The position numbers were made by a program, and so were the translations under genes. A stretch of DNA of 64,000 nt from Candidatus Competibacteraceae bacterium (GTDB lineage: Bacteria; Bacteroidota; Bacteroidia; CAIKAF01). The notes under the pieces are model-generated. The model was not told the origin of the DNA. It ran no database searches and worked only from the letters and a program-made list of their open reading frames with translations. Each line of letters begins with the position of its first letter. Position 1 is the stretch's first letter. Of this stretch, positions 5,373 to 25,430 are shown piece by piece. Where the stretch lies: positions 2,033-66,032 of the forward strand of contig JACSSC010000026.1 in the NCBI GenBank assembly GCA_014879445.1. The letters run 5' to 3'.

Positions 5373-6419
5373 ATGAAAAAATCATTACTAACATTATTTG
5401 CATTGGGTATGGCTGTCGTAAGTTATTCTCAATTCACTATCGTAAGTGCTGATATGCCTAGTGTAGGTAATATCATCGTAAGACAATCAGACACACTCTC
5501 AGTATTTTTTCCCGGAGCTGCGGGTTCGGGTGTATTGTGGGATTTTACTGCGGCTATAGCGCATGAGCCAGAAACTACATTTGTGGTTGCTCCATCCACT
5601 ACGCCCTTTGCATCAGATTATCCAACATCCAATCTGGCATTTACAAGGGATAATAACAACTTTATGTTTCTTACTAATTCTCCTTCTGGTTTAACCGTGC
5701 AGGGTTTGGGTGGCAACTATATTACCGGAAACGATGTATTGGCTTTTAATCCAGAACTTACCATGTATGAGTTTCCGCTTGCATACAACGACAATATGAG
5801 TGACAACTATGCTGTTGAACTGGAAACCGATGGTTCGTCATTCGGTGTATATAAAATTAAATTCAAAAGGTCAGGCACAGTTGAAGATACAGTTGATGGA
5901 TACGGAACACTTAAAACTCCTTACGGCACATATGAAGCACTTCGGGTAAAAAGACACGAAGTGGCGATTGATTCTGTGTTCATCAAATATTTGAGTGATT
6001 TGGAGCCATGGTCGCTTTTTTATGATAGCAATGCCCCTATGATTACGTATTCTTGGCTCACTAAAGAAGAAAAATTGCCTACAGTAGAAATGACTATGAA
6101 TGCCACAGGTGATACTGCCGCCACATTTGTATTCTCAACTTCAATTGGTACTTTTTCAATCGAAGAAGAAAATTACACACAAGCCATTGTAGCACCCAAT
6201 CCGGCTAACGATTTAACTTCAATATATCTTCCATACTCTATAACGGTAGAAAAGACACAATTTCGCCTGACAGATATACATGGAAAAGTTGTACAAAGTC
6301 GCTTTGTAATGAGTGGGAACAGAATTGATGTGCACCTGGATGCATTGCCTTCAGGCGTTTATATTTACTATATTGAAGGCGGTCCGTTACCCATTACAGG
6401 CAAGCTGATTAAAAATTAA
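5373..6419 (+). CDS. Secreted protein with T9SS type-A C-terminal sorting domain (unknown function)
   Basis: Signal peptide MKKSLLTLFALGMAVVSYSQ. The C-terminal ~75 aa (VAPNPANDLTSIYLPY...GVYIYYIEG...KLIKN) match the Por_Secre_tail pattern. Confidence 0.75.
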   Translation: MKKSLLTLFALGMAVVSYSQFTIVSADMPSVGNIIVRQSDTLSVFFPGAAGSGVLWDFTAAIAHEPETTFVVAPSTTPFASDYPTSNLAFTRDNNNFMFLTNSPSGLTVQGLGGNYITGNDVLAFNPELTMYEFPLAYNDNMSDNYAVELETDGSSFGVYKIKFKRSGTVEDTVDGYGTLKTPYGTYEALRVKRHEVAIDSVFIKYLSDLEPWSLFYDSNAPMITYSWLTKEEKLPTVEMTMNATGDTAATFVFSTSIGTFSIEEENYTQAIVAPNPANDLTSIYLPYSITVEKTQFRLTDIHGKVVQSRFVMSGNRIDVHLDALPSGVYIYYIEGGPLPITGKLIKN

Positions 6420-6431
6420 AATCATAAAAAA

Positions 6432-6460
6432 ACAGCCGGACATGCCGGCTGTTTTTTTTT
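6432..6460 (+). terminator. Rho-independent terminator downstream of the 5373..6419 gene
   Basis: Perfect 8-bp stem acagccgg / ccggctgt with a 5-nt loop, followed by T9 (6452..6460). Sits 13 nt after the stop codon. Confidence 0.7.
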
Positions 6461-6598
6461 ATAATGTACATAATCTAAATTTTGATTAGCCCATATCCTA
6501 TTTATTGATGATTTGTTTTGTCGGAATAAAAAAGAAATCACTACCACATTCATCACTTCCAAAACTTCCCATTCTGGGTTCAGATTTTACACGCTCAA

Positions 6599-8242
6599 CT
6601 ACTGAAAAAAGCTCAGATGAAGTAAGAATTCCATCGTGTCCGCCCAACGAACGAAGCGCCTCCAATAATCTGGTGACGACTTCCCTTTATACCCATCTGG
6701 CACTTCTTCTTTGCCCCCGGATGTAAGAAAACGCCTCGTGATTTTTTTTAATTTCTTACTCATATATTCATCATGTTCCATCTGCTGATAGATATTGCTC
6801 CCAAAAGTTTCGTTACGATTTTGGCACAAACTAATCTGATTATTAAATGCGCCACCGAAACAGACATCAAATACAACAAAAATCTGTTTGGCAGGAATTT
6901 TATTTATCATTTTGCCAATCTTGCTAAATGGAATATATGAATGAAGATAAGGATCTGCGTTGGGAGATTTTGATTCTTTACATACTATATAGCCCTCGTC
7001 AAAATATGTATCATTGTAGTACCCATGCCCAGCAAAAAAAATAAATAATTGTGCATTGCTGTCTAGTGTTGATGCATAATTCATAATGTTACGATATATC
7101 GAATTAGCCGAACTATCAATTAGTATTTTAGTTTGAAACCCATATGAATCTCGCAACACATTGCCGATGCTAACAGCATCAAGAACCGGGTTTGAGAGTG
7201 TGCTCCAAACGCTTTTTGCATCATAATGATCCGTGGCAATAAGCAAAGCATGCTTCCCTGAAATAGTTTGTCTAATATTAGTATGCTGACTTACCATATC
7301 AGGCCCACGTGACAAATGCTGTATGTCAGGAACAATATAAAAAAGATCTTCATAAAAAGACTTTTCAGAAAAAAGCGTTGTATAAATTCCCGAAAACCTT
7401 TCTCCTTTTAATTCTTGGGTTAACAATTCCACATATACTCTTTGCGGGGTAGTAAAAACCTGCAATAAGTTTGTTGTTTGAGAAATAAAATACATCAGTG
7501 GACCATGTGGGATATTACCATATTGATCGAGCCCGATAGTTGAAGGCAATAAGAAAACGCGGTTTTTGCTTAATAATGAAGAAACCTGCATATTCGATCT
7601 CAAAACTTTTTTTACAAACAATTTTGGAAAATCTTTATTAAACCCTGACTCCGTTATAAAAAGCTGATTTCTTGCCTGAATCAACTCGAACAAATCCTTA
7701 ATTTCTTGAGTATTGATTGCATAGTTTTTTGAAGCGATTGCCCATCTTAATGAATCATTATAATCATCCTTGACAACACCCGAATGATTTATATCATAAG
7801 TTAAAAAATAATTTTCAGAGGGGTCGAATTTTGACTCTACCGAAACCCCAGCAAATGAGAAGATAAAATAATCTTCAGGCATAGCCAATTCAATCACATT
7901 ATTGATAGCGTTCAATATATTTTCTTTAGTTGCCTGCATCTCTGTTAGCAATTGTGCATGAAAAAAAACCGAATCGTTGTCAATTAGGTACGTGGGATTG
8001 TTTTTCCCGAATACAGTATTTGGATTAATTAAGTTAACCTTGTTTTGTTTAGCTATAGTTTGAATTAGAAGTTGGGCATCTGATATGCAGTTTCGAAATT
8101 CTCCGTAAAATCCATTTTGGTTTATGCCGACAGAGATAACAAATATCCTACCACGGGGAATAGTATCCACTCCACCATCAATTTGCTTTGCAAATATTAA
8201 ATGAGATAACAAGAGTAGTAAAAAAGTAAAATAATTTTTCAT
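6599..8242 (-). CDS. Secreted peptidase C14 (caspase-fold) protein with tandem caspase-like domains. The N-terminal copy lacks the catalytic His; the C-terminal copy keeps the His-Cys dyad.
   Basis: Signal peptide MKNYFTFLLLLLSHLIFA. Second domain: KHALLIATDHY...FIFFAGHGY (His codon at 7025..7027) and QIFVVFDVCFGG (Cys codon at 6860..6862). The first domain has the parallel pattern RIFVISVGINQ...YFIFSFAGVSV, with H replaced by V. Confidence 0.7.
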   Translation of the reverse strand: MKNYFTFLLLLLSHLIFAKQIDGGVDTIPRGRIFVISVGINQNGFYGEFRNCISDAQLLIQTIAKQNKVNLINPNTVFGKNNPTYLIDNDSVFFHAQLLTEMQATKENILNAINNVIELAMPEDYFIFSFAGVSVESKFDPSENYFLTYDINHSGVVKDDYNDSLRWAIASKNYAINTQEIKDLFELIQARNQLFITESGFNKDFPKLFVKKVLRSNMQVSSLLSKNRVFLLPSTIGLDQYGNIPHGPLMYFISQTTNLLQVFTTPQRVYVELLTQELKGERFSGIYTTLFSEKSFYEDLFYIVPDIQHLSRGPDMVSQHTNIRQTISGKHALLIATDHYDAKSVWSTLSNPVLDAVSIGNVLRDSYGFQTKILIDSSANSIYRNIMNYASTLDSNAQLFIFFAGHGYYNDTYFDEGYIVCKESKSPNADPYLHSYIPFSKIGKMINKIPAKQIFVVFDVCFGGAFNNQISLCQNRNETFGSNIYQQMEHDEYMSKKLKKITRRFLTSGGKEEVPDGYKGKSSPDYWRRFVRWADTMEFLLHLSFFQ

Positions 8243-8272
8243 ACAATTACAATATTGAACATGGGTTGTGTC

Positions 8273-9199
8273 CTATTTACTCATACTATTATCAGCTAAA
8301 AATTCTTCATACAACTTATGAATAATTCCATCCGAAAGACCTACTTTAGGAACAAAGATAGATTTGATATCGGCATTTTTGCATATGTGAAGATATATTT
8401 CGGCAGCCGGCACAATGACATCCGCTCTATCTGGATTTAAGCTATATTTTCTTATTCTTGAGGAAATAGATGTGTCTTTAAGTTTTTGATAAATGTCTTT
8501 CAATTGGCTTCGTGTAAATGGATTGCCTTCCGTTTCACCAGATAGTTTTTGTAATTTGATAATATTACCACCGCTTCCAATACCCATAATGTTGGGGTAT
8601 AATTCTTGCAACATCTGACATTGATATTTTAGGCGTTGCCATTCCTCTTTATCGATTTTATCATGTAACATCCGAACTGTGCCAATATTAAAGGACTCTG
8701 CATATCTCTTTTTTCCCTTGCTAAACAATGTAATTTCGGTACTTCCTCCACCCACATCAATATATAGATAGGCCCTGGAATGTGTCAATGCGTCGGCTAT
8801 ATGATTACTGTATATTAAATCCGCTTCCGTTTTACCATCAATAATAGCAATATCAATTCCTGATTGCTCTTTAATAGTGCGAATAATATCGCTTGCATTT
8901 TTGGCTTCACGCATAGCAGATGTTGCACATGCTCTATATCCTTTCACTTCATGAATTTCGATTAGATTACGAAATGCCAGCATTGCCTTTATCAGTTTAT
9001 CAATTTTGGCTTGCGAAACAATGCCATTCACAAATACATCTTCACCCAATCTGATTGGCACGCGGGTAAGCGCTACTTTTTTGAAAACCGAAATTCCCTC
9101 ATCATTATGATAAATATTATAAAACAGAAGACGAACAGCATTACTGCCAATATCTATTGCTGCAAATTTCACATATTCTGGGTCTTCAATCCATTCCAT
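8273..9199 (-). CDS. Ppx/GppA family phosphatase (exopolyphosphatase / guanosine pentaphosphate phosphohydrolase, short form)
   Basis: FAAIDIGSNAVRLL...YIDVGGGSTEITLF actin-like ATPase motifs of Ppx/GppA. The track start (9244) is TTG; an in-frame ATG at 9199 gives an MEWIEDPEY N-terminus. Confidence 0.8.
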   Translation of the reverse strand: MEWIEDPEYVKFAAIDIGSNAVRLLFYNIYHNDEGISVFKKVALTRVPIRLGEDVFVNGIVSQAKIDKLIKAMLAFRNLIEIHEVKGYRACATSAMREAKNASDIIRTIKEQSGIDIAIIDGKTEADLIYSNHIADALTHSRAYLYIDVGGGSTEITLFSKGKKRYAESFNIGTVRMLHDKIDKEEWQRLKYQCQMLQELYPNIMGIGSGGNIIKLQKLSGETEGNPFTRSQLKDIYQKLKDTSISSRIRKYSLNPDRADVIVPAAEIYLHICKNADIKSIFVPKVGLSDGIIHKLYEEFLADNSMSK

Positions 9200-10041
9200 T
9201 TTTGTTGATAATATTGTATTAATTGATTCATGGGATTTTTGCAAAAGTAGCCAACAGATATTTGCTGACTACACACTTTCCTCATTTCATTTTGAAAATA
9301 ATAAGCTACCGAACCGCTGAAATGTGCTGTATTGTGTAGAGGTGTCATGTTTTGATGTTGATAATATCTCAAATGACGGCTTATCAGCATTTGAAATGAA
9401 TGCATAATAGATTGCTGCATATCCGGATGCTGCCGATGTGTATGAATAAATGGTACAAAAGATGCCAAGTAGCGATTTGGAGATAATTCGCTATATACTT
9501 GTTGAATGATATCATCCATTGTGAGATGATATGTATCCCAGAATGCTTGTTGCAAATCTTTGGGCCATTCATTGCGCATATATGAAATTAAAAGTTGTTT
9601 GCCAAGCCATGAACCACTACCCTCATCGCCTAGGAGATATCCACCCGAGGGGGCAGAGGAAAGAATTTTTTGTCCATCCCATAAACATGACGCTGATCCT
9701 GTGCCAACAATAAAAATCAAGCTCTGTTGATTATTCGACAATGCATGAGCGACTGCCATGATATCGGGATAAACCTGTATGATAGAAGAAGGAAAGAAAT
9801 GAGATAAAACATCTTGCATAATTGGTGCAGAAGTAGTATTCACACCGGCACCGTAATAATGCACTTCATCGGGACATATTTTCAAAAAGTCCGCATCAAA
9901 AATCGGTGCAATGCGCCTATGAATATCGTCTTTCGACATTTGTATCGGATTGATTCCATCAGCATCTTTTGTAGAGATATAACCTGGGCTTAGGATAGCC
10001 CAGGTTGTTTTAGTTGAACCTGCATCTGCCAACAATATCAT
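9169..10041 (-). CDS. BadF/BadG/BcrA/BcrD-type ATPase (N-acetylglucosamine kinase family)
   Basis: N-terminal MILLADAGSTKTTWAIL and GTGSA motifs typical of COG2971 sugar kinases. The 3' end overlaps the ppx start by about 31 nt. Confidence 0.8.
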   Translation of the reverse strand: MILLADAGSTKTTWAILSPGYISTKDADGINPIQMSKDDIHRRIAPIFDADFLKICPDEVHYYGAGVNTTSAPIMQDVLSHFFPSSIIQVYPDIMAVAHALSNNQQSLIFIVGTGSASCLWDGQKILSSAPSGGYLLGDEGSGSWLGKQLLISYMRNEWPKDLQQAFWDTYHLTMDDIIQQVYSELSPNRYLASFVPFIHTHRQHPDMQQSIMHSFQMLISRHLRYYQHQNMTPLHNTAHFSGSVAYYFQNEMRKVCSQQISVGYFCKNPMNQLIQYYQQKWNGLKTQNM

Positions 10042-12572: not shown

Positions 12573-12594
12573 TTTATACCTTTATACTGTGTTT

Positions 12595-14805
12595 ATGACA
12601 AAGATAACGAATTACACGGGCATTTGTGTATATCTTCTGCTGTTAACAGGGCAACATATCCCTATTTGGTCGCAACTATCCATACATCATGGGGTTACAC
12701 TACCTACACGCGATACTGTTCGGGCATTGATTATTTTTGCCGAAGTAGATTATATGGATGGGCCATGCCCCAAAGACCTTCCCGACGAATTTCAAGGACA
12801 ATGGACACGTCTGCCTGATGGTAGCAGAGGTCTGCCGGCAAATGCGGATATCTATTTAGATCCTATCATTTCTAACCAGCCCAAGGGTTATATTACAAGC
12901 TATTATTACGAAGCATCTTTTGGTCAATATGTACTCCTGGGCGATTATCTTCCTTTTGTGGTTCGTGTTCCCTGTCATCAGATTAAACAAGGGCTCAATC
13001 TTGAGCAAACCTTACGCATCATTGATCAGCGAGCTGATGGTCAACCTCTATCAACGGCTCATGGCATACCTCTCACTTCCTTTGATCTTTGGAGCGAAGC
13101 CCCCCCCGGCCATATCAAGCCCAAAATACCCGATGGAAAAATAGATTTGGTATATCTGATTTGGCGAAATAATCGATTCCTAAGTGGATATAATACATGG
13201 GACAATTCAGGATATGGCGTAACACAAGTCAAAGGTATTCCCTTTTGTGGTATGCAGGGCGTTAATAATGCAGCATCTTTCAACAACTCATGGGGTGATG
13301 AGCATGGGTTTCACATTACCATTGCCGAACATTTACATGCCATATTTGGAGGCAATCACTGGCATTCGGGCGGAGGAAGAGGTATTCATACTTTTTTGGC
13401 AATACCATACAATTATGGATTAACCGGGCAGCTCGAAGCTACTATGCAAGCCGTTTGCGGCTGGGATCGTTGGATGATGAAATGGAAAAATCCAAAAAAA
13501 AAATTCCTGATTTCTGTACTTGATTCTTCATTGATGGAAATAAATACAGAAGATTTTAATATAAAAACTCATCCAACAGGAGGAATGTTTTATTTACGCG
13601 ACCATGTTCAAACCGGCGATGCCATTCGTATTCGACTGCCATATTTCAATTGGGAAAAAGAAGGCGACATCAAAAACCAATATCTTTGGCTCGAATATAG
13701 AGATTTCGCCACCCGATTTGACCAGTACATGAAAACCGGTGAGGCAGAATGTAGCGATCATCATCCTGAATACCCTAATGGCACACCCGGATTATACGCA
13801 TACATTCAAGTTGGCAAGGATCAGCGAGAAGGTGAGCATATTTATCACGCCCGCCCCTCTCTTCCCAATGGATTAGCCAGTTGGCTTCTTCCCCTCACTG
13901 CTGAGGGCAATCATGACTTTCATTATCGGTATGACAAAATACCCGACCCTCTGCCCGGATGTGGCAGCTGGGGCAATAAAACGATTCCGGTTGAATTAGC
14001 AAAAAGTAAACCCAATCCATTCACAGGTCACTCCGACCTTTTTCGTATCACCGATTCCAATCAAGATGGGAAATTATATTCAGGCGACGATCTTCAGCCA
14101 GGGCTGGCAGATATGTGGGGTGATTCGGTTTGGTTTAATTATCATCGCAATGGAGATAAAGATGATGCCTTCTGTTTTAAAAATAAAAAAACCCGCCTTT
14201 CGATTAGTACCAATCCTGCGCCCGTTCCGGTTTACACCTATGCTACCGATTACGAATACAATCAATTTTATTTTACATCCGGTGCCCAGCAAAGTCGTTT
14301 TGAAAACCGCAGTATTGCGCTGAATGGGTTATCTATTGAAATCATAAGGGAAGATGATAACGGTCCGGTAGGCAAAGCTATATTGGTTCATATTAGATGG
14401 GATGATTATGTAGTCAATCAATCTGTACGATGGTGTGGCCATATTGAATTGCGTCCGCATGCATTTAATCCTGAGAAGCCCTCATTAATCTTAGAAAGAA
14501 ACAAAAGCATATTGCTTGACCGTAGCGAATCTCCGACTTATCACACAAACAAAGGGGTTAGTGATAGGGGGATATATTGGTTTTCTGACACTACTGTATT
14601 TGTCGGGCTTCCTGGTGCAAATATCCAACTACAAACAGGTGCAAGAATTGAATTAAAAAATGGAAGTCGGCTTGAACTTCGTGATGGAAGTCAACTGGAA
14701 ATGGGCAAAAAAAGTCGCATTATAATACATCGTGGCTCTGCACTGATACAACATACAGGCGCAAAAATCGTTAAAGCAAAAGGTGCAAAAATTATTTTCA
14801 AATAA
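12595..14805 (+). CDS. Large hypothetical secreted protein (737 aa)
   Basis: The track start (12589) is GTG; the first ATG is at 12595. N-terminal hydrophobic signal, His-rich segment GDEHGFHITIAEHLHAIFGGNHWHSGGG, EF-hand-like loop DSNQDGKLYSGDD, and C-terminal beta-strand-like repeats (GANIQLQTGARIELKNGSRLELRDGSQLEMG). No family recognised. Confidence 0.6.
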   Translation: MTKITNYTGICVYLLLLTGQHIPIWSQLSIHHGVTLPTRDTVRALIIFAEVDYMDGPCPKDLPDEFQGQWTRLPDGSRGLPANADIYLDPIISNQPKGYITSYYYEASFGQYVLLGDYLPFVVRVPCHQIKQGLNLEQTLRIIDQRADGQPLSTAHGIPLTSFDLWSEAPPGHIKPKIPDGKIDLVYLIWRNNRFLSGYNTWDNSGYGVTQVKGIPFCGMQGVNNAASFNNSWGDEHGFHITIAEHLHAIFGGNHWHSGGGRGIHTFLAIPYNYGLTGQLEATMQAVCGWDRWMMKWKNPKKKFLISVLDSSLMEINTEDFNIKTHPTGGMFYLRDHVQTGDAIRIRLPYFNWEKEGDIKNQYLWLEYRDFATRFDQYMKTGEAECSDHHPEYPNGTPGLYAYIQVGKDQREGEHIYHARPSLPNGLASWLLPLTAEGNHDFHYRYDKIPDPLPGCGSWGNKTIPVELAKSKPNPFTGHSDLFRITDSNQDGKLYSGDDLQPGLADMWGDSVWFNYHRNGDKDDAFCFKNKKTRLSISTNPAPVPVYTYATDYEYNQFYFTSGAQQSRFENRSIALNGLSIEIIREDDNGPVGKAILVHIRWDDYVVNQSVRWCGHIELRPHAFNPEKPSLILERNKSILLDRSESPTYHTNKGVSDRGIYWFSDTTVFVGLPGANIQLQTGARIELKNGSRLELRDGSQLEMGKKSRIIIHRGSALIQHTGAKIVKAKGAKIIFK

Positions 14806-15319
14806 TCACATTGTTGTTATAAGCTTCATACTTGCATGCCTTTGTGCAAGTGTGCAAAGCAACGTGCTATTTGCTCAAAAACGCAATCCCAAAATTGAGC
14901 GTACGACCGTAAAAGATGCTCCAGAAGAAACCAAGCACAATAAAAAAAACGTACGCCCTAAAAAAAGAAAAAAATTACAATCGCGTGACTTTATCAACCA
15001 CAAATACAGTATGCGAAAAAAAATGACGGCAAAAGAAAAAAGACAAGTTGATAAAATAGCCGGGGTGGATAGAAAAAAAGTGAGAAAAGAAAAAAAGAAA
15101 GAAAAGAAAACAGATAGGTATTTTAAAAAAGAAGAGCGAAAATTGCGTCGTAAACACATGCGATTGCAAGATCCTGACGTACGGAAAAGAATGCGAAAAA
15201 ACTTCCGTAAAACTAAAAAGGAGTTTATATCGCTTCAACAAAAAAAGAGAAAAAGCCCATTAAACAAAAAACCCGGAAAGCCCAAAAAACGCAAGCGACA
15301 TACGCTGCCTAAACCATAA
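14783..15319 (+). CDS. Hypothetical extremely basic (Lys/Arg-rich) low-complexity protein with a putative signal peptide
   Basis: GTG start at 14783, overlapping the previous stop. After MQKLFSNNHIVVISFILACLCASVQSNVLFAQ the protein is about 45% K/R. Strand is uncertain, because K-rich coding produces F/L-rich antisense ORFs. Confidence 0.4.
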   Translation: MQKLFSNNHIVVISFILACLCASVQSNVLFAQKRNPKIERTTVKDAPEETKHNKKNVRPKKRKKLQSRDFINHKYSMRKKMTAKEKRQVDKIAGVDRKKVRKEKKKEKKTDRYFKKEERKLRRKHMRLQDPDVRKRMRKNFRKTKKEFISLQQKKRKSPLNKKPGKPKKRKRHTLPKP

Positions 15320-15376
15320 AGCGCTACAACCGTTTTCTTTTTGTATTTTCGTTGCCTATTTGGAACGAACAATCTT

Positions 15377-16894
15377 ATGTCAAACGAACTTTCAGAACAA
15401 GAAATCATTCGCAGGCAGGGCCTGGAAGAATTAAGAAAGATGGGTATTAATCCCTATCCATCTGAACTTTTTCCGGTAAACGCATATGCGTCTCATATTA
15501 AATTATCATTTGACTCGCAGCCCGAGAATTTTGCTGAAGTATGTTTGGCCGGACGGCTAATGAGCAAACGCATAATGGGAAAGGCCTCTTTTGCAGAACT
15601 TAAAGACAGCAGTGGCCGCATACAATTATATATCAATCGTGATGAAATTTGCTCGGGTGATGACAAAGAATTGTATAATACAGTTTTCAAACGATTGCTC
15701 GATCTTGGTGATTATATTGGAGTAAAAGGGTATGTATTTAAAACCCAGGTAGGCGAAATTTCTGTACATGTTAAAGAGTTAATTGTTTTAGCTAAATCTT
15801 TGCGTCCGCTGCCCGTAGTAAAAACAGATGCCGACGGGAATATTTATGATGCATTTGCTGATCCCGAACTTCGCTTCCGCATGCGATATGTTGATCTTGT
15901 TGTAAATGACCATGTAAAAGATACATTTCTTAAGCGTAGTCGAATGATTCATTCCATTCGCGATTTTCTGAATGTACAAGGTGCTTTAGAAGTTGATACG
16001 CCGGTATTGCAGAGCATACCGGGAGGCGCTGCAGCCCGACCATTTATTACGCATCATAATGCGCTTGACATGCCATTATACCTTCGCATCGCCAATGAGC
16101 TTTACCTGAAACGACTCATTGTTGGCGGATTTGATTGGGTATATGAATTCAGTAGAAATTTCCGAAATGAAGGTATGGATCGTACTCATAATCCCGAATT
16201 TACAATTCTTGAATTTTATGTAGCATACAAAGATTATTATTGGATGATGGAGCAAACGGAACAAATGCTCGAAAAGGTTTGCATGGATGTAAATGGAACC
16301 ACCGAAATACCAAGTGGGACAGATACCCTCTCATTCAAAGCTCCTTTTCGCAGAATTTCTCTGTATGATGCCATTCAAGAACATACCGGTGTGGATGTAT
16401 CACAAATGAATGAAGACGCGCTTCGCAATCTTTGCAAAAAATTTCATATCGAAACTGATAATACAATGGGACGAGGCAAGCTCATTGATGAGTTGTTTAG
16501 TGAAACTTGCGAAAAGCATTTTATCCAACCTACATTTATTATTGATTATCCTATCGAAATGAGCCCGCTTACTAAAAAACACCGCCACAAAGAAGGATTG
16601 GTTGAACGATTTGAGTTGATGGTAAATGGCAAAGAAATAGCCAATGCATATTCGGAATTAAACGATCCGATAGACCAATACGAAAGATTTCTTGAACAGG
16701 TAAAGCTAATGGAGCGGGGTGATGATGAAGCCATGTTTATTGACCATGACTTCATCCGATCTATGGAATATGGTATGCCTCCCATGAGCGGAATAGGAAT
16801 CGGTATAGATCGCCTGGCCATGCTTATGACCAATCAATCAACCATACAGGAAGTTTTGTTCTTTCCACAAATGCGCCCCGAAAAGCCCGAATAA
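15377..16894 (+). CDS. lysS: Lysine--tRNA ligase (class II)
   Basis: N-terminal anticodon-binding OB fold and class II core motifs (FRNEGMDRTHNPEFT, GIGIGIDRLAMLMT). The track start at 15341 is TTG; ATG at 15377 gives MSNELSEQE. Confidence 0.93.
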   Translation: MSNELSEQEIIRRQGLEELRKMGINPYPSELFPVNAYASHIKLSFDSQPENFAEVCLAGRLMSKRIMGKASFAELKDSSGRIQLYINRDEICSGDDKELYNTVFKRLLDLGDYIGVKGYVFKTQVGEISVHVKELIVLAKSLRPLPVVKTDADGNIYDAFADPELRFRMRYVDLVVNDHVKDTFLKRSRMIHSIRDFLNVQGALEVDTPVLQSIPGGAAARPFITHHNALDMPLYLRIANELYLKRLIVGGFDWVYEFSRNFRNEGMDRTHNPEFTILEFYVAYKDYYWMMEQTEQMLEKVCMDVNGTTEIPSGTDTLSFKAPFRRISLYDAIQEHTGVDVSQMNEDALRNLCKKFHIETDNTMGRGKLIDELFSETCEKHFIQPTFIIDYPIEMSPLTKKHRHKEGLVERFELMVNGKEIANAYSELNDPIDQYERFLEQVKLMERGDDEAMFIDHDFIRSMEYGMPPMSGIGIGIDRLAMLMTNQSTIQEVLFFPQMRPEKPE

Positions 16895-16927
16895 ATTTGG
16901 ATGAAATTTCATTCATAGATAATAAGC

Positions 16928-17605
16928 ATGCAGATTGATATCATAAGTGTTCTGCCTGAAATGATGGAAAGCCCGCTTTCTCAATCCATCGTTCAACGAG
17001 CCCGACAGAAAGGTTTGGTTCAAATTAATCTGATTGGTCTTCGCGAATTTGGACTAGGTGCATATAAACAGCTTGACGATTATCCATATGGTGGCGGTGG
17101 TGGAATGGTTTTACGTGTTGAACCATTAGCAGCATGTATCGAACATTTGCTTCAACAACAAACCTATGATGAAATCATCTATCTCACTCCTGATGGCGAA
17201 CAACTCAATCAAAAAACAGTAAATTCATTAAGTACAAAAAATAATCTTCTGCTTATTTGCGGTCATTATAAAGGAATAGACCAAAGAATTCGCGACAAAT
17301 ATGTAACCTGCGAAATCAGCATCGGCGATTATGTGCTCAGTGGTGGCGAAATAGCTGCCTGTGTATTAGCCGACGCCATAGTGCGACTTATTCCTGGTGT
17401 GCTAAGTGATGAAATGTCGGCATTAAGTGATAGTTTTCAAGATGGATTGTTAGCACCACCTGTGTACACTCGTCCTGAAATTTGGGAAGGTCGTTCAGTG
17501 CCCGAAGTACTAATCAGCGGACACGAAAAACGCATTGCAGAATGGCGTTTAGAAGAATCCATTGCCAGAACACGCAAACGCAGACCCGACTTGCTCGACG
17601 AATAA
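16928..17605 (+). CDS. trmD: tRNA (guanine37-N1)-methyltransferase
   Basis: Hallmark TrmD motifs YPYGGGGGMV and IGDYVLSGGE. 225 aa. Confidence 0.92.
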   Translation: MQIDIISVLPEMMESPLSQSIVQRARQKGLVQINLIGLREFGLGAYKQLDDYPYGGGGGMVLRVEPLAACIEHLLQQQTYDEIIYLTPDGEQLNQKTVNSLSTKNNLLLICGHYKGIDQRIRDKYVTCEISIGDYVLSGGEIAACVLADAIVRLIPGVLSDEMSALSDSFQDGLLAPPVYTRPEIWEGRSVPEVLISGHEKRIAEWRLEESIARTRKRRPDLLDE

Positions 17606-17628
17606 AACGATCAGCGTTAACTCAAATT

Positions 17629-17660
17629 AAAAAGCCGTTTCAAAATAGAAACGGCTTTTT
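17629..17660. terminator. Bidirectional rho-independent terminator between trmD (+) and the convergent giant T9SS gene (-)
   Basis: 10-bp perfect stem aaagccgttt / aaacggcttt with an 8-nt loop, flanked by an A-run upstream and a T-run downstream. Confidence 0.7.
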
Positions 17661-17678
17661 AATATTAATTCTAAAAAG

Positions 17679-20600
17679 TTATTTAACCACAATGCGGGTA
17701 ATGGCATTATGCTTTCCGGCCACCACACGAACCAGATAAGTACCGGCTGCATATGAACTGAAATCAACATCTGCTACAAAATAAGCTTGATGTACGCCCA
17801 TATTACGCATCCAAATTACTTTGCCGGCAAGATCCATCACAGATACATATACTATTTCAGTTCCATCAAATGTAAATGAAATACGAGAAAACTCATCTGT
17901 TGGGTTAGGATATACCGTCAACAGCTCTTCTGACTCGCTTTCGATACCATTAAACTGAACATCAATTTCAACCGTTTGAGTAACCGTTGTTGTTCCACAA
18001 TCATTGGTAACGGTCAATGTAACTGTATAAATACCTTCATTGGCATAGATGTGTACCGGATTCATCTCCGTTGATGTATTGCTATCACCAAAATCCCAAA
18101 AATAACTAGTTGCATTGGTTGAAGTATTCGTAAAGGCAGCCGAGTAGAAGCTAACGGAAGACGTGAAACTACCAGAAGGATTAGGAAAATCCGTTACAAT
18201 TACTGTATCAATAGCTAGTCCGCAATTTGAAATTACCTGCACAAAATATGTGGCAGGAACCAATGCGGTAATAGATGGTGTATTTTGGAAGAATGGGCTC
18301 CAGTTGTAAGTTGATCCGGCAATTACAGGAGCAGCAATCAGAACAGAATCAGAAGGACATTTAATCAAATCCGGTCCGAGCGTAAAGCCCGCAACCGAAA
18401 CAAATTCATCAGCGCCAATATCAGGGGTAGATGCATGGCGAGGATCACCGTCAAAATCAACTGAAACGCCGGCTATAGGTGTTGCGGCACCATCCAACTC
18501 GGTACGACAAGTATGAAGATCTGATCCGTTGAAATTAGGATTTAAAGATAAAGAAGCAGCATCAAATCCGGTAGCATTTTGCCAGTCGGCTAATGTAGCA
18601 TAGGTTGTTGTACCTAATGCAACAACATCCGTTCCGGCAACAAACAAGTTGTTATGGTTTGAGTTGGAAATATAAAACGCTGATTCGGAAAGAATGGCCA
18701 ATCCTGCACCGGCATTCATTATATTGTTGTTGATAATATCAATACCATTTGAACTACCATTAAACAAACGCAAAGCGCCCGAAGAAGTTGAAGTGCTTGA
18801 TGAGTAGAGAGAATTAAATACAACCTGAGTATTGCTCACATCTTGCAATGCAATACATTCGCTATAGGTAGGATCAATATTGATTCCCATATACACCATA
18901 TTATTGGCTACTAAAGATGGATTTGAAGGGTTGGCATCTATATTTACCAAATTGATACCAAAACCACCTTGAATACCGCCAACATGATTGCCGGTAACAA
19001 CAGTTCCATCCATAACTTGTTCGAGGTCTATGTGAAAAATATTTCCAATTCCATTTGAGGCAGAAGACATTACTTGATTGTTTCTTATTTCCGGACGAAT
19101 TTGGTTAACCAAAACTATTCCGGCCTGATAATATTGAGATATCGTGTTGTTATAGATTTCCAAACCTGACTCCATTAATACATTGCTTTGGCCAAACAAC
19201 CAAATAGCTCTTGATCCGCCAAAGATTTGATTGTTGCGAATAATAAGGTTATTGTCGTTTCCATCAACAGAGTTGATCGTATGCTTGTTGGCATCTACGG
19301 CAGCAGCCATGGTGTCGCCCATCAGCACACAATTTTCAATGATGATATCCTCTGAACCATTTTTAAGAGAAACTACAGTTGAGAAAAATGCCATATTTTG
19401 CAATGTTATCTCGTTAAGGGTAACACGATCAGCACCATTAAAGCCCACCACAAAGTTATTCGCAGTAGAGAAAGGCATAAAATCAAAAGTTACGTCAGTA
19501 GCATTTTGTGTTTCAGATTGAATTGTCAATCGGTAATTGCCTGCGCCTACTTCAGGGAAGGTGGCGATTTCTACCTGTTCGGTATATGTGCCCGGACGAA
19601 CATTCAAAGTAACATCTCCACATATTCCACGCAGCTCAATCGCATCTATGGCATCATTAAGCGTCGCAAAATCTGGTATTGTGCCATACACGGTATATAT
19701 ACCACTCATAGCGTCATAAACCTGACGAGTAATGGTGTCGTTGCCATCGTATTCGTCAGGATTCCCATTGGGATTCTCTGTCCAGATTTTCACTATATCT
19801 CCATCATTAAAATTGAAATATCCCAAGTCAACTTGTGTCGTTTGGTTTGAAGTCAGCAGCCCAGTCCAGTTGTATGTCATTACTGTAGTATTATTCACAT
19901 TCACTACAATATCAGCGGATGTAAGATCATTAACACCAATGGTCGTCAACAGCACTTTAATCGTATCCTCTACTGAGCAAGAAAGCGAAGGCGAAACAGA
20001 AGGAGAGACGATGGTAGCTATACCGGCGTCATCATTGGGGAGAGGGCGAATATCAACCAAATAATCTTCAGTTTCGCCCCAAGTATAGGTGCCACAAGGA
20101 GTAACTGTAGAAGCACTTCCCGATTCTCTACAAACTACACGCATGCCTGTAACGCCCGTTAAAGCACCCGGCGGAATGGTAATATTACCCAAAACTGAGC
20201 TTTGAGTTAAGGCGCTGGCGGGTCCGCCCATCACCAATTCGGCTGGGTCAGCATAAACGCCATCCTGATTAAAATCAATATACACTTCAACATAGCGACT
20301 ATTAAAACCGGAATTTTCACAATCCCGTGTGCTGATAACTGATGGATAGGATTGAGTTTTGAAGAATGCCGGCACCGGCGTAAGGGTAGTAAAATTCTGA
20401 TATCCGGTACAAACACCAAAACTTTGATTTACAAAAGACCCGATACGTACTGTATCAATATATTCATCAGCAGTAGAAGTAGCATTGGATGCACAATAGC
20501 AATTATAGAATGGCGTAACCATAACCTGTAATGGAGCAGAAGAATCTGTTTGGGCGCTACATGTAGCCATTGCCCTAAAATAAGTACTAGCAGCTAAATT

Positions 20601-21428
20601 AGTACTATAAGTTGCGCTGGTTGCCCCGGGAATGTTTGTCCATGTAATCCCATCAGGCGAAGATTGCCATTGATAGGTTTGGCCTAATCCGCCAGTTCCT
20701 CCAGTAAGTGATAAATACAACATTTGAGAAGGGCAAACAGGATTAGCAGAAGCTGTCGTTACACCGGCTACAGGAGGAGCGGTACAAGGAAGAGCCGGCT
20801 CAACCGTAACAGACCCTGTAAAGTAACGTGGAGTAAGTGTTAATCCCGTACCTGATCCAGAATAACCTACATTAAACCCTGCAATTTGTTGAGTACCTAC
20901 CTTCAAATTTACACCTGCCCCAGAAAAAATATTATTATCTGGAGAAAGAGGAGACCCAGTTCCACTATATCTAACACTTCCCGGACCTTGATTTTCTAAG
21001 GCAAAACGATATTCTGTTGATGCTGGAATTGTGAAACTCAGGCCAACAAAATTAATCGGTGCAATTCCTGAAGCAATAGCTGGTGTTGGAGAAGATGTAG
21101 CAATCAAATTCCAGTTGCCACTTTCACAATTGGTCGTGGAATTAGATAATTCAGTAGCCGTATAAAAAAGACGCCAAACCGAATTATTATCAGCTGTAGT
21201 AAGATAGTTTCCTATTCCTGTGAGCAACATTGGAAAAGGATTAGTATTCTGTATAACAAAAGAAATTTGCCCTCCGGCACCTAGTGAGTTCGTTCCTGTA
21301 TATGGTGGGAAAGGACCTGTTGTAAGTGTTGTCTGTGCTATAGTTACAGATGTAAAAAGCATCATGGCCAGTGCCGATAGACACAAATTGCGTATGCTTT
21401 TATTGATTGTGTTGTAGATTCTATACAT
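17679..21428 (-). CDS. Giant secreted T9SS cargo protein (1249 aa): GEVED-like motif, right-handed beta-helix repeats, PKD domain, T9SS type-A C-terminal domain
   Basis: Signal peptide; CGTYTWGETEDY motif; beta-helix repeat region (NNNIMNAGAG...); PKD signature YFWDFGDSNTSTEMNPVHIYANEGIYTVTLTVTNDCG; C-terminal Por_Secre_tail (LLTVYPNPTDE...GTYLVRVVAG...RIVVK). Confidence 0.85.
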   Translation of the reverse strand: MYRIYNTINKSIRNLCLSALAMMLFTSVTIAQTTLTTGPFPPYTGTNSLGAGGQISFVIQNTNPFPMLLTGIGNYLTTADNNSVWRLFYTATELSNSTTNCESGNWNLIATSSPTPAIASGIAPINFVGLSFTIPASTEYRFALENQGPGSVRYSGTGSPLSPDNNIFSGAGVNLKVGTQQIAGFNVGYSGSGTGLTLTPRYFTGSVTVEPALPCTAPPVAGVTTASANPVCPSQMLYLSLTGGTGGLGQTYQWQSSPDGITWTNIPGATSATYSTNLAASTYFRAMATCSAQTDSSAPLQVMVTPFYNCYCASNATSTADEYIDTVRIGSFVNQSFGVCTGYQNFTTLTPVPAFFKTQSYPSVISTRDCENSGFNSRYVEVYIDFNQDGVYADPAELVMGGPASALTQSSVLGNITIPPGALTGVTGMRVVCRESGSASTVTPCGTYTWGETEDYLVDIRPLPNDDAGIATIVSPSVSPSLSCSVEDTIKVLLTTIGVNDLTSADIVVNVNNTTVMTYNWTGLLTSNQTTQVDLGYFNFNDGDIVKIWTENPNGNPDEYDGNDTITRQVYDAMSGIYTVYGTIPDFATLNDAIDAIELRGICGDVTLNVRPGTYTEQVEIATFPEVGAGNYRLTIQSETQNATDVTFDFMPFSTANNFVVGFNGADRVTLNEITLQNMAFFSTVVSLKNGSEDIIIENCVLMGDTMAAAVDANKHTINSVDGNDNNLIIRNNQIFGGSRAIWLFGQSNVLMESGLEIYNNTISQYYQAGIVLVNQIRPEIRNNQVMSSASNGIGNIFHIDLEQVMDGTVVTGNHVGGIQGGFGINLVNIDANPSNPSLVANNMVYMGINIDPTYSECIALQDVSNTQVVFNSLYSSSTSTSSGALRLFNGSSNGIDIINNNIMNAGAGLAILSESAFYISNSNHNNLFVAGTDVVALGTTTYATLADWQNATGFDAASLSLNPNFNGSDLHTCRTELDGAATPIAGVSVDFDGDPRHASTPDIGADEFVSVAGFTLGPDLIKCPSDSVLIAAPVIAGSTYNWSPFFQNTPSITALVPATYFVQVISNCGLAIDTVIVTDFPNPSGSFTSSVSFYSAAFTNTSTNATSYFWDFGDSNTSTEMNPVHIYANEGIYTVTLTVTNDCGTTTVTQTVEIDVQFNGIESESEELLTVYPNPTDEFSRISFTFDGTEIVYVSVMDLAGKVIWMRNMGVHQAYFVADVDFSSYAAGTYLVRVVAGKHNAITRIVVK

Positions 21429-21492
21429 ATTCTGAATATTAAGTTATTTAATGCAGGTTGTTAATCATACTGCCAATTTAATTTATTGAGAA

Positions 21493-24400
21493 TTATTTAA
21501 TAATAATACGTACTGTTCTTTGATAATCACCAGCCCGAACCTTCATCAAATAAGTTCCGGCAGCTTGTCCTGTAATATCCATCATGGTGCTCAATCCATT
21601 GGTTGCGCTTCCCATTACCGATTGATGTATCAATCGTCCTGACAAATCATAAATATCAATCCAAACCTGATTGCTCACAACAGGTGCTAAGGCAACTGCA
21701 AATAATCCTTCTGAAGGATTAGGATACACCTGAAGCTGCAATGCCTCTTCATCTTCTAGCCCCGCCACATTGGGATTAATCACAATTACTTGAGAAGTAA
21801 CAGATGAATCGCCACAGTCGCTGTAAGCTGTTAATGTTACAGTATATGTGCCATTGGTTGGGTAAATATGATTGGGATTTTCAACAGTTGATGTATTGCC
21901 ATCTCCAAAATCCCAAAAATATGATGTAGCTTGTGAGGAATTGTTGCTGAAAGCAGCAGTAAAGAAGTTTTGATTATATGTGAAAGTGGCTGAAGGTGTA
22001 GAATAATTGGCAACCACAATCGAGTCCACTGAAATACCGCAAGCATGTATAATCTGAACAATATATGTTCCTGGCTGAGTAGCATAAATACCCGGTGTAT
22101 TTTGGAAGTATGGGCTCCAATAATAGGATGCACTTTCGATTTGTTCGGCACCCAACCAAACACTATCTGACGGACATTTTATCAAATCAGCGCCAAGCGT
22201 AAAGTTGGCTGATGATAAAAATTCGTCAGCGCCGATATCTGGCGTTGAAGTATTGCGTGTATCCTGATCAAAGTCGTGAGTTACTCCGGCAACGGGGATA
22301 CCGGCATTATCAAGCTCCACACGACAGGTATGCAAATCAGCACCATTAAACATTGGATCAACAGATAAAGAATTCAGCTCTTTTCCTGTAGCTGTCTGAA
22401 GCGCCGACAAATCGGCCATATTGGTTCCTACCCTAACAAAATTAGCAGAAGAAGTAAAATAATTGTTATGATTAGCTATATCTAAATACAAGGCAGATTC
22501 GCTATTTAAAGCAAATCCACTTCCTGCATTTACAATATTATTATTAAGAAGCGTAATACCTGACGACTGTCCATTATATACTCGAATACCGGCAGCTGTA
22601 GCTGTGGTTGCACGTGTGTGAACAGAATTGAATACAATATTCACATTGGCACATTCCTGTACTGCAATACCATGGCTATTGGTTGGCGAACCGGTAGCTC
22701 CCATATATACAAAGTTGTTAGCAATCAAACTTGGAGAGCCGGGTTGGGCGTCCACATCCAATAGATTAATTCCAAAACCGCCTTGATCGCCGGAAATAAG
22801 ATTTCCGGTTACTTCAGCGCCATTCAATACATCCTCTAAACTAATGTGGAAAATATTAGTGTTTGTATTTGAAGAATGGGATTGAATATTATTTTGCTTG
22901 ATAGCTGGTCCTGTTTGGCGAAGACCCACAATCGCTGCCGCCCTATAACGGCGAAATGTGTTATAAGCAACCAACAAGCCCGATTCAACTTCGGTAACAC
23001 TTGGGCCTGCTAAATAAATACCATACGAGCCACCTATTATGATGTTATGCTCAATTCTAGTTCCATTGTCAAGCCCATCAACTGAGCCAATTGCTATTTT
23101 GTTGGTCGTAGTGGTGGTTGCCAAACTATCGCTATACACATTACAATATTGTACAGCAATATTATTGTTACCACCCAACAATCTAACTACTCCAGAAAAT
23201 GTTGTGGAAGTATTGGCTAAAGTAAGACGGTTCAGTATGATGTTTTGGGATTGATTAAATCCAAATACATAATTCAGAGCTGTCGAAGTGGCCATATATT
23301 CAAAACGCACATCACTGGCATTCAAAGATTCTGACTGAATAGTAACCGTATATGAGCCGGTAGATGGATAAGGACCAACCAGCACTTGCTCATTATAGGT
23401 GCCTGCACGTACATTAAAAAATACATCACCGCAAATACCACGCAACTCAAGTGCTTCAATGGCATCATTCATTGTAGCAAAGTCGGGAGTAGTACCATAT
23501 ACGGTATAAACACCATTAAGCGCATCATACCCGATTACACTCATGCTATCGTTGAAGGCAAATTCATCCGCAACACCATTCGGGTTAGTAACCCAAACCA
23601 AAACCGTATCGCCATCATTCAAGCTAACTGCTCCTAAATTAACAGTAGTAGTTTGCCCTGAGGTAATACTGCCGGCCCAATTGTATGATGTAATAGTTGT
23701 GCCATTTACCGAAACATGAATCGTAGCACTGGTAAGCGTTGCGGTGCCAATTGTTGTAAGTGATACTACAACAAAATCATCCACGCTACATCCTCCAGTA
23801 GGCGGGTTAGAAGGAGAAATAATTTCGGCAATACCTGCATCATTTGCCGGTTGTGGAGCAATATTTACCATATAATCTTCCGTCTCTCCCCAGGTATAAG
23901 TACCACAAGGCATAACTGAATTAGGGTCAGAGCTTTCGAGTAAAACTACACGCATGCGTGTAATACCGGTGCTAGCCGTAACAGGAATGTTAACCACACC
24001 CGTAAAATCTTCAGCCGGAGTGGATGCAGTGGTTGGGCCAAATGCAAATACGGCTTCCTGAGGCAAATCAAAAATACCATTTTGATTATAGTCAATAAAT
24101 ACTCTACCCACTCTTGTATAAGAGCCACCGCATGTGCCCGATCTTACCAAGATAGGGTAAGAAATACCCTGAAACATCACACCAACCGGAGAAGAAACAT
24201 TGGTATAAGTTTCACAAGCAGTTGGTGAAGAAATATTATCAATATTAGATATCTTAACCCTGTCTATCTTAGAATCAGCTGTACTGGTAGCATTTGAAGC
24301 GCAGTAGCAATTAAAAAATGGTTGAAGTGTTACATTCTCAATACTGGTTGTATCACTTTGAGCAGAGCAAGTAACTACTGCTCGGAAAAAGATGTTGGAA

Positions 24401-25215
24401 TTGATGGTCGCATTATAAGTTGAGTTTGTTGCGCCTGAGATGTCGGTAAAAGTAATACCATCAGGTGATGATTGCCACTGATACGTTTGGCCTGAACCCA
24501 TCGTACCTCCTGTAATTGACAGGGTTACATTTGTGCCCGGACAAACAGGATTAGCACTGGCAAGAGCCATGCCTGCGGTTGGGGGTGCCGTACAAGCCGA
24601 ACCCGAGATATAAGTGATTTGCATGGCAGGTCGGGTAAATCCGGGGCCACTTGTAAGTCCGGTTGTCATGCTACACCCAACTTGACCATCATCATACTGC
24701 CCTGCATAGGCATTAAATGCATAATCATCTGACTGCACGGTGCTGCTACCATTCCAAGATGCATTATCAAAACAAACCTCTACAACAATATTATCTGAGC
24801 CATTCCAAATAAAGCTAGTGGCGAATGTGTATGTATTCCATCCCAAAGTTGGAGCAGACACGGCTTGAGAAAAACAAGTTGTAGAAGTTGGCAAAACCCC
24901 ACCAGGGTGAGCGCCCAATGCCGTATGGCCCATCTTAATCGAAAATCCGTTTAGGGGGTCGCCACTTGAAGATGTTACATTAAATCCCAATGCAGTAATA
25001 TTGCTGCTGGGAGTAAGGCCGGCTGACGATAATTCTGATGCTAAAATAATATATTGCACCCTGCCATCCTCCCAAAGTGTACCATAAGGAGTAATGCCTG
25101 ATGAGCCGGTAGTAGATAATCCCGCTCCTATTTGAACGGTTTGCGATAAAGCCGAAACCGATAAAAGTATCGCCAATCCGATTGACATTGATAAACAACG
25201 TAAGATTTTATTCAT
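21493..25215 (-). CDS. Giant secreted T9SS cargo protein (1240 aa), paralog of 17679..21428 with the same domain order
   Basis: Shares blocks with the neighbour: TYQWQSSPDGITF, CGTYTWGETEDY, YTVYGTTPDFATMNDAIEALELRGICGDV, PKD YFWDFGDGNTSTVENPNHIY, and a C-terminal Por_Secre_tail (LQVYPNPSEG...GTYLMKVRAG...RIIIK). Confidence 0.85.
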   Translation of the reverse strand: MNKILRCLSMSIGLAILLSVSALSQTVQIGAGLSTTGSSGITPYGTLWEDGRVQYIILASELSSAGLTPSSNITALGFNVTSSSGDPLNGFSIKMGHTALGAHPGGVLPTSTTCFSQAVSAPTLGWNTYTFATSFIWNGSDNIVVEVCFDNASWNGSSTVQSDDYAFNAYAGQYDDGQVGCSMTTGLTSGPGFTRPAMQITYISGSACTAPPTAGMALASANPVCPGTNVTLSITGGTMGSGQTYQWQSSPDGITFTDISGATNSTYNATINSNIFFRAVVTCSAQSDTTSIENVTLQPFFNCYCASNATSTADSKIDRVKISNIDNISSPTACETYTNVSSPVGVMFQGISYPILVRSGTCGGSYTRVGRVFIDYNQNGIFDLPQEAVFAFGPTTASTPAEDFTGVVNIPVTASTGITRMRVVLLESSDPNSVMPCGTYTWGETEDYMVNIAPQPANDAGIAEIISPSNPPTGGCSVDDFVVVSLTTIGTATLTSATIHVSVNGTTITSYNWAGSITSGQTTTVNLGAVSLNDGDTVLVWVTNPNGVADEFAFNDSMSVIGYDALNGVYTVYGTTPDFATMNDAIEALELRGICGDVFFNVRAGTYNEQVLVGPYPSTGSYTVTIQSESLNASDVRFEYMATSTALNYVFGFNQSQNIILNRLTLANTSTTFSGVVRLLGGNNNIAVQYCNVYSDSLATTTTTNKIAIGSVDGLDNGTRIEHNIIIGGSYGIYLAGPSVTEVESGLLVAYNTFRRYRAAAIVGLRQTGPAIKQNNIQSHSSNTNTNIFHISLEDVLNGAEVTGNLISGDQGGFGINLLDVDAQPGSPSLIANNFVYMGATGSPTNSHGIAVQECANVNIVFNSVHTRATTATAAGIRVYNGQSSGITLLNNNIVNAGSGFALNSESALYLDIANHNNYFTSSANFVRVGTNMADLSALQTATGKELNSLSVDPMFNGADLHTCRVELDNAGIPVAGVTHDFDQDTRNTSTPDIGADEFLSSANFTLGADLIKCPSDSVWLGAEQIESASYYWSPYFQNTPGIYATQPGTYIVQIIHACGISVDSIVVANYSTPSATFTYNQNFFTAAFSNNSSQATSYFWDFGDGNTSTVENPNHIYPTNGTYTVTLTAYSDCGDSSVTSQVIVINPNVAGLEDEEALQLQVYPNPSEGLFAVALAPVVSNQVWIDIYDLSGRLIHQSVMGSATNGLSTMMDITGQAAGTYLMKVRAGDYQRTVRIIIK

Positions 25216-25430
25216 GGTTTAATTATTTTGCTTGAGTTACGAGATGTCAAAATTAGATAAGTTTAGTTAATATCGAATTGTTTTATCATAGATTTTTTGT
25301 TATTGTACTCAATTTTACTTCAATAAACCTGTATCTTTCAGAAATATCATATAACTATACGTCGTATGAAACCATTTTTATAAAAACATTGCACTTGTCA
25401 TCCCGCCCGAATGCATTACCTTTGTACAGT

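Follow-up and report, generated by a model that had tools for sequence, protein, structure and literature searches.

Tandem paralogs of predicted T9SS cargo with sequence-unrelated N-terminal modules in a Bacteroidota-like contig

We analyzed a 64,000-nucleotide stretch of contig JACSSC010000026.1 (hereafter the window) that contains two adjacent, same-strand genes, A and B, encoding predicted type IX secretion system (T9SS) cargo proteins. We found that A and B arose by an ancient tandem duplication within a modular Bacteroidota (Flavobacteriales-like) family. Their N-terminal modules (tips) come from two families with no sequence relationship, and orthologous loci bear other modules at this position. 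Ongoing gene conversion between the two genes plays no detectable part, nor does hypervariability. Both proteins are already deposited as uncharacterised T9SS proteins, and both GenBank records are annotated as 'T9SS type A sorting domain-containing protein'. An earlier interpretation made from the letters of the window (the sequence-only reading) had described A and B as tandem paralogs with a common domain order. This held, as the open reading frames (ORFs) were exact and a BLASTP alignment of the two proteins covered 1089 amino acids (aa) at 49% identity and 66% positives (E = 0). The four peptide blocks quoted in that reading are all present in both proteins, identical or nearly so, though the PKD block has two variable residues between NTST and NP rather than one.

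Unrelated tips on a shared chassis

The BLASTP alignment spanned from about A166/B168 to the C-termini of both proteins, and no alignment was obtained for the first ~205-213 aa. We defined the tip regions of family members as the sequence upstream of a conserved 'C.APP.AG' motif, which marks the start of an Ig-like domain, and the conserved remainder as the chassis. By BLAST clustering, the tip regions of the family fell into seven types or more. When the A-tip profile was compared with the B-tip profile using hhalign, the probability of a match was 0.1%. The A-type tip recurs in the homologs P0006, P0012, P0025 and P0030, while the B-type tip recurs in P0037, P0040, P0041 and the upstream gene of locus L002 (58% identical). 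The B tip was 49% identical to the tips of P0037, P0040 and P0041, although the chassis of these three proteins are only 36-38% identical to that of B. In the chassis orthologs of B (P0010, P0011 and L086up) the tip is of another type, 'QCPFPG'. At the same position, the closest chassis relatives of A (P0002 and P0004) have an extra GEVED domain and P0007 has a proprotein-convertase P-domain. The sequence-only reading had viewed the N-termini as strongly diverged, following duplication and diversification of the exposed, ligand-binding parts. The tandem duplication stands, as does the concentration of differences in an unalignable N-terminal part that is probably ligand-binding. However, the two N-termini are not diverged copies of each other, given the hhalign result and the presence of other modules at orthologous loci; they were replaced rather than diverged.

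Both module types extend well beyond this family. A local jackhmmer search of the fetched proteins and loci found the A-type module at the N-terminus in 46 out of 46 cases, and the B-type module at the N-terminus in 33 and internally in 6; three proteins of the fetched set had both types. When the tips alone served as queries, word-indexed homolog searches yielded just 2 and 4 proteins. An exhaustive profile search with the B-type module returned 9007 cluster representatives (50% clustering) at E<=1e-3, with 1509 at E <= 1e-30, and the module often occurred in 2-8 copies in proteins of 1-6.5 kaa (thousand aa). No Pfam family covered the B-type module in the ten proteins tested (B and nine others), and neither tip matched Pfam (isolated segments, E<=10), NCBIfam or PHROGs.

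We modeled the tips by AlphaFold2 with family alignments (pLDDT 84.9 and pTM 0.85 for the A-type; 80.5 and 0.82 for the B-type), and in both models the tip is a beta-sandwich resembling PHR domains and carbohydrate-binding modules (CBMs). The structural neighbours included PHR domains (3no8, 3gbw, 3hwj), the tail spike gp29 of mycobacteriophage Bxb1 (9d93), the baseplate DUF4815 protein of staphylococcal phage phi812 (9euf), the structure of the cysteine protease Cwp84, which includes a lectin-like domain (4ci7), acetylxylan esterase CBMs (7tog, 9kqz) and modules of the CBM6/32/35 kind. A Foldseek search of BFVD returned phage proteins, several of them named as tail or collagen-repeat proteins, and the best match was an uncharacterised phage protein (E 1.5e-8, TMq 0.77). 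The modeled tips share their fold with the phage tail-spike and baseplate tips, PHR domains and CBM6/32/35, but the sequence identity to these neighbours was only 5-19%, no sequence-level match was found in Pfam, PHROGs or PDB, and Pfam and NCBIfam held no defined CBM or PHR sequence family for the tips, whose structural neighbours in that comparison were 5-14% identical to them.

The modeled folds raise an alternative, namely that the two tips descend from a single ancestral N-terminal domain and diverged past recognition by extreme diversifying selection. Both are beta-sandwiches of like size, and both have the same top structural neighbours (3no8, 3gbw, 9euf, 9d93, 4ci7, 9jwb and 8h2i), as such an origin would predict. 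We consider it quite improbable, since each tip has relatives at 41-58% identity on distant chassis lineages and also in proteins of unrelated architecture, where the module may be internal or multi-copy. The co-occurrence of both module types in three proteins argues against it too, as do the unrelated modules (extra GEVED, proprotein-convertase P-domain and 'QCPFPG' type) that occupy orthologous positions.

Behind the tip, the ~1040-aa chassis runs from the putative Ig-like 'YQWQ' domain through GEVED, a linker, a ~440-aa probable beta-helix, a small domain and PKD to the type A sorting domain (Table 1). We called domains at the Pfam gathering cut-offs and at the curated TIGR04183 cut-off. 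GEVED (PF20009), PKD_4/PKD (PF18911/PF00801), Por_Secre_tail (PF18962) and TIGR04183 passed in both A and B, in agreement with the domain content proposed earlier. Both proteins contain GETEDY, a form of the GE[VT]EDY motif. Sequence and profile searches of PDB returned PKD, the sorting domain and a single weak match between the Ig-like region and a tail protein, and nothing else; the PKD of A matched the ColH PKD at E 9e-18 (E ~1e-17 for the ColH PKD matches overall). The Ig-like region of A has no Pfam match itself, though it contains the family-invariant residues Y252, Q253, W254, Q255 and S257, and more distant homologs found with A bear PF19081/PF13895; this suggests an Ig-like fold for the region. 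The central core of A has an invariant Asn every 23-30 aa (N761, 784, 814, 842/3, 872, 900/1 and 926/7). PF13229 matched one of 15 aligned family members at 7.4e-8, and P0040, P0058, P0065 and P0085 have precomputed PF13229/PF05048 matches. From these features the core is probably a right-handed beta-helix. A crude PbH1 regular expression showed no enrichment on the core over shuffles, and hhalign of the family profile with the Pfam-positive beta-helix T9SS protein of the window gave an alignment only in the sorting domain. Parts of the central region drop to 33-45% identity between A and B.

Table 1. Features of genes A and B and their immediate flanks (window coordinates)
Feature	Position	Strand	Details
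Gene A, downstream paralog	17679..21428	(-)	1249 aa; identical to GenBank MBE2246498.1
Gene B, upstream paralog	21493..25215	(-)	1240 aa; identical to GenBank MBE2246499.1
B-A spacer	21429..21492	(-)	64 nt; 35-58 nt in orthologous pairs
A-type N-terminal module	20790..21338	(-)	aa 31-213; modeled PHR/CBM-like beta-sandwich; no Pfam model
Putative Ig-like domain of A ('YQWQSSPDG')	20514..20789	(-)	aa 214-305
GEVED-containing domain of A	20049..20513	(-)	aa 306-460; Pfam match aa 379-458; PF20009 64.9 bits, cut-off 24.4
Linker domain of A	19713..20048	(-)	aa 461-572; conserved 'NDAGI..I.SP' start; no Pfam match
Central ~440-aa core of A	18399..19712	(-)	aa 573-1010; probable right-handed beta-helix; ends DLHTC...PDIGADEF
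Small conserved domain of A	18174..18398	(-)	aa 1011-1085; no Pfam match at E<=10
PKD domain of A	17949..18173	(-)	aa ~1086-1160; PF18911 68.4 bits, cut-off 27
T9SS type A sorting domain of A	17682..17948	(-)	aa ~1161-1249; TIGR04183 42.1 bits (cut-off 23), PF18962 35.6 (cut-off 27)
B-type N-terminal module	24598..25143	(-)	aa 25-206; modeled beta-sandwich, fold class of the A-type, sequence unrelated; no Pfam model
GEVED-containing domain of B	23860..24321	(-)	aa ~299-452; PF20009 67.3 bits, cut-off 24.4
PKD domain of B	21781..22002	(-)	aa ~1072-1145; PF18911 62 bits, cut-off 27
T9SS type A sorting domain of B	21496..21729	(-)	aa ~1163-1240; TIGR04183 39 bits, PF18962 39.4 bits
Bidirectional intrinsic terminator	17626..17663	.	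between trmD (+) and gene A (-); AAAAAGCCGTTTC-loop-GAAACGGCTTTTT
Divergent intergenic region, gene B / ABC-2 permease gene	25216..25277	.	sigma-70-like site

An ancient duplication without detectable gene conversion

A tree built from the chassis alone grouped A with P0002, P0004 and P0006, and B with P0010 and P0011. Bootstrapped per-domain trees recovered the split between the A-clade and the B-clade at 86-100% for GEVED, the C-terminal half of the core and PKD. No per-domain tree supported A and B as sisters; the trees of the short Ig-like and linker domains were unresolved. A tandem in which an A-clade gene follows one of the B-clade lies beside recX in three other assemblies, L001 (GCA_026418175.1), L002 (JGI 3300044614) and L086 (GCA_053496315.1), with spacers of 35-58 nt, while the outgroup P0007 is a single copy beside recX (L087). 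Since the B-then-A tandem is found in three other Flavobacteriales-like genomes and the outgroup is single-copy, the duplication is old. The window pair adjoins trmD/lysS and not recX. However, a 738-aa protein encoded at 12589..14805 (+) is 67% identical to its counterpart near the orthologous pair in L086, indicating that the window locus is orthologous though locally rearranged, and similar-sized genes are present there in L001. The gene for the 738-aa protein looks like a conserved neighbour of the tandem pair. It is followed by a gene for a 178-aa protein (14783..15319, +); neither protein matches Pfam.

Several relatives showed features of their own. In L001 the A-clade ortholog (13568..17288 of that locus) is split into a 771-aa ORF, a ~479-aa core-matching ORF and a separate 83-aa sorting-domain gene, and is either a pseudogene or the product of assembly frameshift errors. 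In L002 the B-clade ortholog (6262..9942) retains the B-type tip and has a GEVED only 35% identical to that of B; this GEVED clusters at 100% bootstrap with P0013, a distant family member, which indicates an internal domain-level replacement. Tandem same-strand genes sharing the ~440-aa core also occur in Adhaeribacter soli L081 (three genes) and in L004 (two genes), thus tandem amplification of the core family recurs across Bacteroidota.

The sequence-only reading had further proposed that there may be ongoing gene conversion between A and B, giving mosaic alleles and variation of a surface antigen or adhesin. The tandem, same-strand arrangement and the identical peptide blocks would fit this proposal, as would the identity between A and B in the Ig-like and linker domains (0.58 and 0.54), which is as high as that between B and its orthologs (0.57 and 0.47). 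In a codon alignment of the homologous part, A and B had 56% nucleotide identity and 37.7% third-position identity. At residues identical in A and B the codon identity was 0.439, against 0.435 expected from codon usage, indicating that the synonymous sites are saturated. Within the four 'identical' peptide blocks the codons matched at 6/12, 6/12, 10/25 and 10/16 positions. We also compared the genes with simulations in which the codons of B were redrawn from the codon usage of both genes with the protein sequence fixed. The longest identical nucleotide run was 17 nt relative to a simulated mean of 18.3 nt (P = 0.73), and the maximum local synonymous identity was 0.60 relative to 0.63 (P = 0.89). 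The DNA comparison therefore shows old divergence without the mosaic nucleotide blocks that had been proposed, which is the outcome that the reading itself had named as refuting it. The shared peptide blocks correspond to columns that are invariant in the 15-member family alignment (Y252-Q-W-Q, G451-E-T-E-x-Y, G601/C603/V606, W1111-x-F-G-D and P1124/H1126), and are thus explained by structural or functional constraint and not by recent exchange.

Population data agreed with these observations. We collected full-length variants of A (14) and B (13) from independent assemblies as 90% clusters, and found all 27 to be >99% identical and uniform in length. The A variants differed at 15 isolated sites and the B variants at 9, spread along the proteins, and no hypervariable segment was seen among them. 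In three assemblies the nucleotide sequence over all of A was the same as that of the window. The minor allele matched the residue of the paralog at 3 out of 15 sites in A and at 4 out of 9 in B; these were considered as conversion tracts and rejected, since the sites were all isolated. With synonymous saturation throughout, A and B kept with their own orthologs in the per-domain trees, and populations showing only scattered point changes, we regard ongoing gene conversion and the surface antigen variation derived from it as refuted at the resolution of these data and as extremely unlikely. Adjacent paralogous surface-protein genes are the only feature that A and B have in common with gene-conversion antigenic-variation loci, examples of which are Neisseria pilE/pilS and Borrelia vlsE; shared nucleotide tracts, silent cassettes and population hypervariability are all absent from A and B.

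Predicted export and function

We consider it fairly probable that A and B are T9SS-exported, adhesin-like surface binding proteins, ancient duplicates with exchangeable, unrelated tips. Their secretion route, surface display and binding function are predictions from sequence features. Each protein would comprise a Sec signal peptide, a ~180-aa beta-sandwich tip and the chassis. By inspection only, the signal peptides are MYRIYNTINKSIRNLCLSALAMMLFTSVTIA in A and MNKILRCLSMSIGLAILLSVSALS in B, each followed by Q at +1, and both have a basic n-region and a hydrophobic core. JGI gene calls start A at Met22 (window position 21365; 1228 aa) and B at Met10 (25188; 1231 aa). The longer starts used here, which give signal peptides with a basic n-region, look more plausible. 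The proteins would be exported by Sec to the periplasm and pass through the T9SS under the direction of the C-terminal sorting domain (CTD). A PorU-type sortase would then cut off the CTD, and the protein would be anchored to anionic lipopolysaccharide (A-LPS) or released. The mechanism of the T9SS CTD, the sortase and A-LPS has been reviewed (PMC5445135). Such a route would leave the N-terminal module cell-distal, as a lectin-like binding tip atop a rigid multi-domain stalk, and it is this predicted geometry that favours a surface-displayed adhesin-like protein. The streptococcal fibrillar adhesin CshA is the protein from which GEVED was defined, and the domain is described as accompanying ligand-binding domains in adhesins that were put together by domain shuffling (PMC10952558). 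In the favoured interpretation, A and B would recognise different ligands through their unrelated tips, and specificity would change by rare whole-domain replacement across lineages.

The status of A and B as T9SS cargo, proposed earlier, was supported by the type A CTDs of both proteins, export itself being predicted. In PDB profile searches the CTDs matched the solved T9SS CTDs 8glk_D, 8glj_D and 8qb1_A. The gingipains, like further CTD proteins from Porphyromonas gingivalis, are examples of the closest known systems. Unlike gingipains, the passenger of A and B is not a protease and is without a characterised homolog. The CshA-type fibrillar adhesins (Streptococcus gordonii; Barringer et al. 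2023, PMC10952558) share GEVED with A and B, as well as a putative N-terminal binding module that lies distal to the anchor signal at the C-terminus. In both, family diversity arises by domain shuffling. The differences are that A and B carry a Gram-negative T9SS signal instead of a cell-wall anchor, and that no Pfam match precedes GEVED in A or B (the models tested included no specific CshA NR2 model). In addition, A and B have no long tandem-repeat stalk, each chassis domain being present once. Their centre is a probable beta-helix.

The main alternative is that A and B act on polysaccharides as secreted enzymes (lyase, hydrolase or esterase) with a catalytic beta-helix core, in which the N-terminal beta-sandwiches would be CBMs for two different substrates. 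An architecture of beta-helix, CBM, PKD and CTD fits polysaccharide-degrading enzymes as well, and this is one of several points that weigh against a binding protein or the details of our model. The modeled beta-sandwich is generic, being found in CBMs, PHR domains and capsid/tail proteins, and identifies no ligand. The beta-helix models of Pfam did not match A or B even at E <= 10, and sequence and profile searches of PDB with the cores of A and B gave no beta-helix match. No genes of the T9SS machinery (GldK-N/PorK-N, SprA/Sov, PorU, PorV) were found among the ORFs scanned, which were part of those in the 64-kb window. Finally, a very old exchange between A and B in the Ig-like and linker domains may have taken place, considering that the trees of these domains are unresolved and that the A-B identity is about equal to the identity between B and its orthologs. 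Regarding the machinery, its presence in the host genome is indirectly supported by the four CTD proteins in the window and by the relatives of A and B, which are from Flavobacteriales, Crocinitomicaceae and Fluviicola. As for enzymes, the core matched no solved PDB structure in sequence and profile searches and no catalytic Pfam family, and its invariant residues are mostly a structural Asn ladder. The loci had no SusC/D genes of the polysaccharide-utilization type and no other neighbours encoding carbohydrate-active enzymes, and GEVED is linked to adhesins. We therefore judge the enzymatic alternative unlikely and retain the adhesin-like binding protein as the preferred interpretation.

Genomic surroundings and implications

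The strong bidirectional terminator noted beside the pair was confirmed. It is a perfect hairpin with a 16-bp stem (-22.7 kcal/mol, z = -7.9), and 0/200 shuffles folded equally well. No terminator-like site was found in the 64-nt spacer when we looked for one. Because the spacer is free of terminators and short spacing is kept in the orthologous pairs, A and B are probably co-transcribed. Upstream of B we identified TTGACA-17-AATAAT at 25250..25222 (-), with 11 out of 12 matches to the sigma-70 consensus, from which Bacteroidota promoters differ. The 'divergent glycan locus' proposed on this side consists of only three genes, transcribed divergently from B, which encode an ABC-2 permease, an ABC ATPase and a triple-GT2 protein of 1008 aa. 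Past the triple-GT2 gene are a 233-aa ORF without a Pfam match and genes for an S8 protease, HflX and a TRAP transporter, among other housekeeping genes.

Elsewhere in the window, two further T9SS cargo genes lie next to each other on one strand, forming a second pair; they encode proteins of 689 aa (56892..58961, -) and 1003 aa (59260..62271, -). Both have NosD and Por_Secre_tail matches, a Beta_helix match is present in the 1003-aa protein only, and the pair is related to A and B in the CTD alone. The gene beside the pair (62522..63970, -) encodes a protein of 482 aa that carries the endosialidase chaperone domain Peptidase_S74. A 547-aa protein encoded at 6599..8242 (-) has a caspase (Peptidase_C14) domain in its C-terminal half and nothing recognised in its N-terminal ~330 aa. 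The GenBank records of A and B name as host a 'Candidatus Competibacteraceae bacterium' metagenome-assembled genome (MAG), i.e., a member of the Gammaproteobacteria. With ~40% G+C, four T9SS CTD proteins and Flavobacteriales-like relatives, the contig is unlike such an assignment, and was probably mis-binned in the Competibacteraceae MAG.

A and B are uncharacterised modular T9SS cargo of a fairly ordinary kind and reveal no new mechanism. The pair is nevertheless a clean case of tip-module replacement at orthologous loci, and it illustrates that peptide blocks shared without change by tandem paralogs may reflect nothing but structural constraint and should not be taken as evidence of gene conversion. 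The two tip modules represent sizeable domain families that Pfam does not model, and the B-type, which is very widespread, could be curated as a new family. It is possible, though on balance doubtful, that the tips serve as interchangeable receptor-binding tips on T9SS cargo and that recX-linked tandem loci retarget by swapping whole tips; if true, this swapping would resemble the exchange of tail-fibre tips in phages. T9SS cargo, most of it unannotated, influences how environmental Bacteroidota adhere to and feed on particles.

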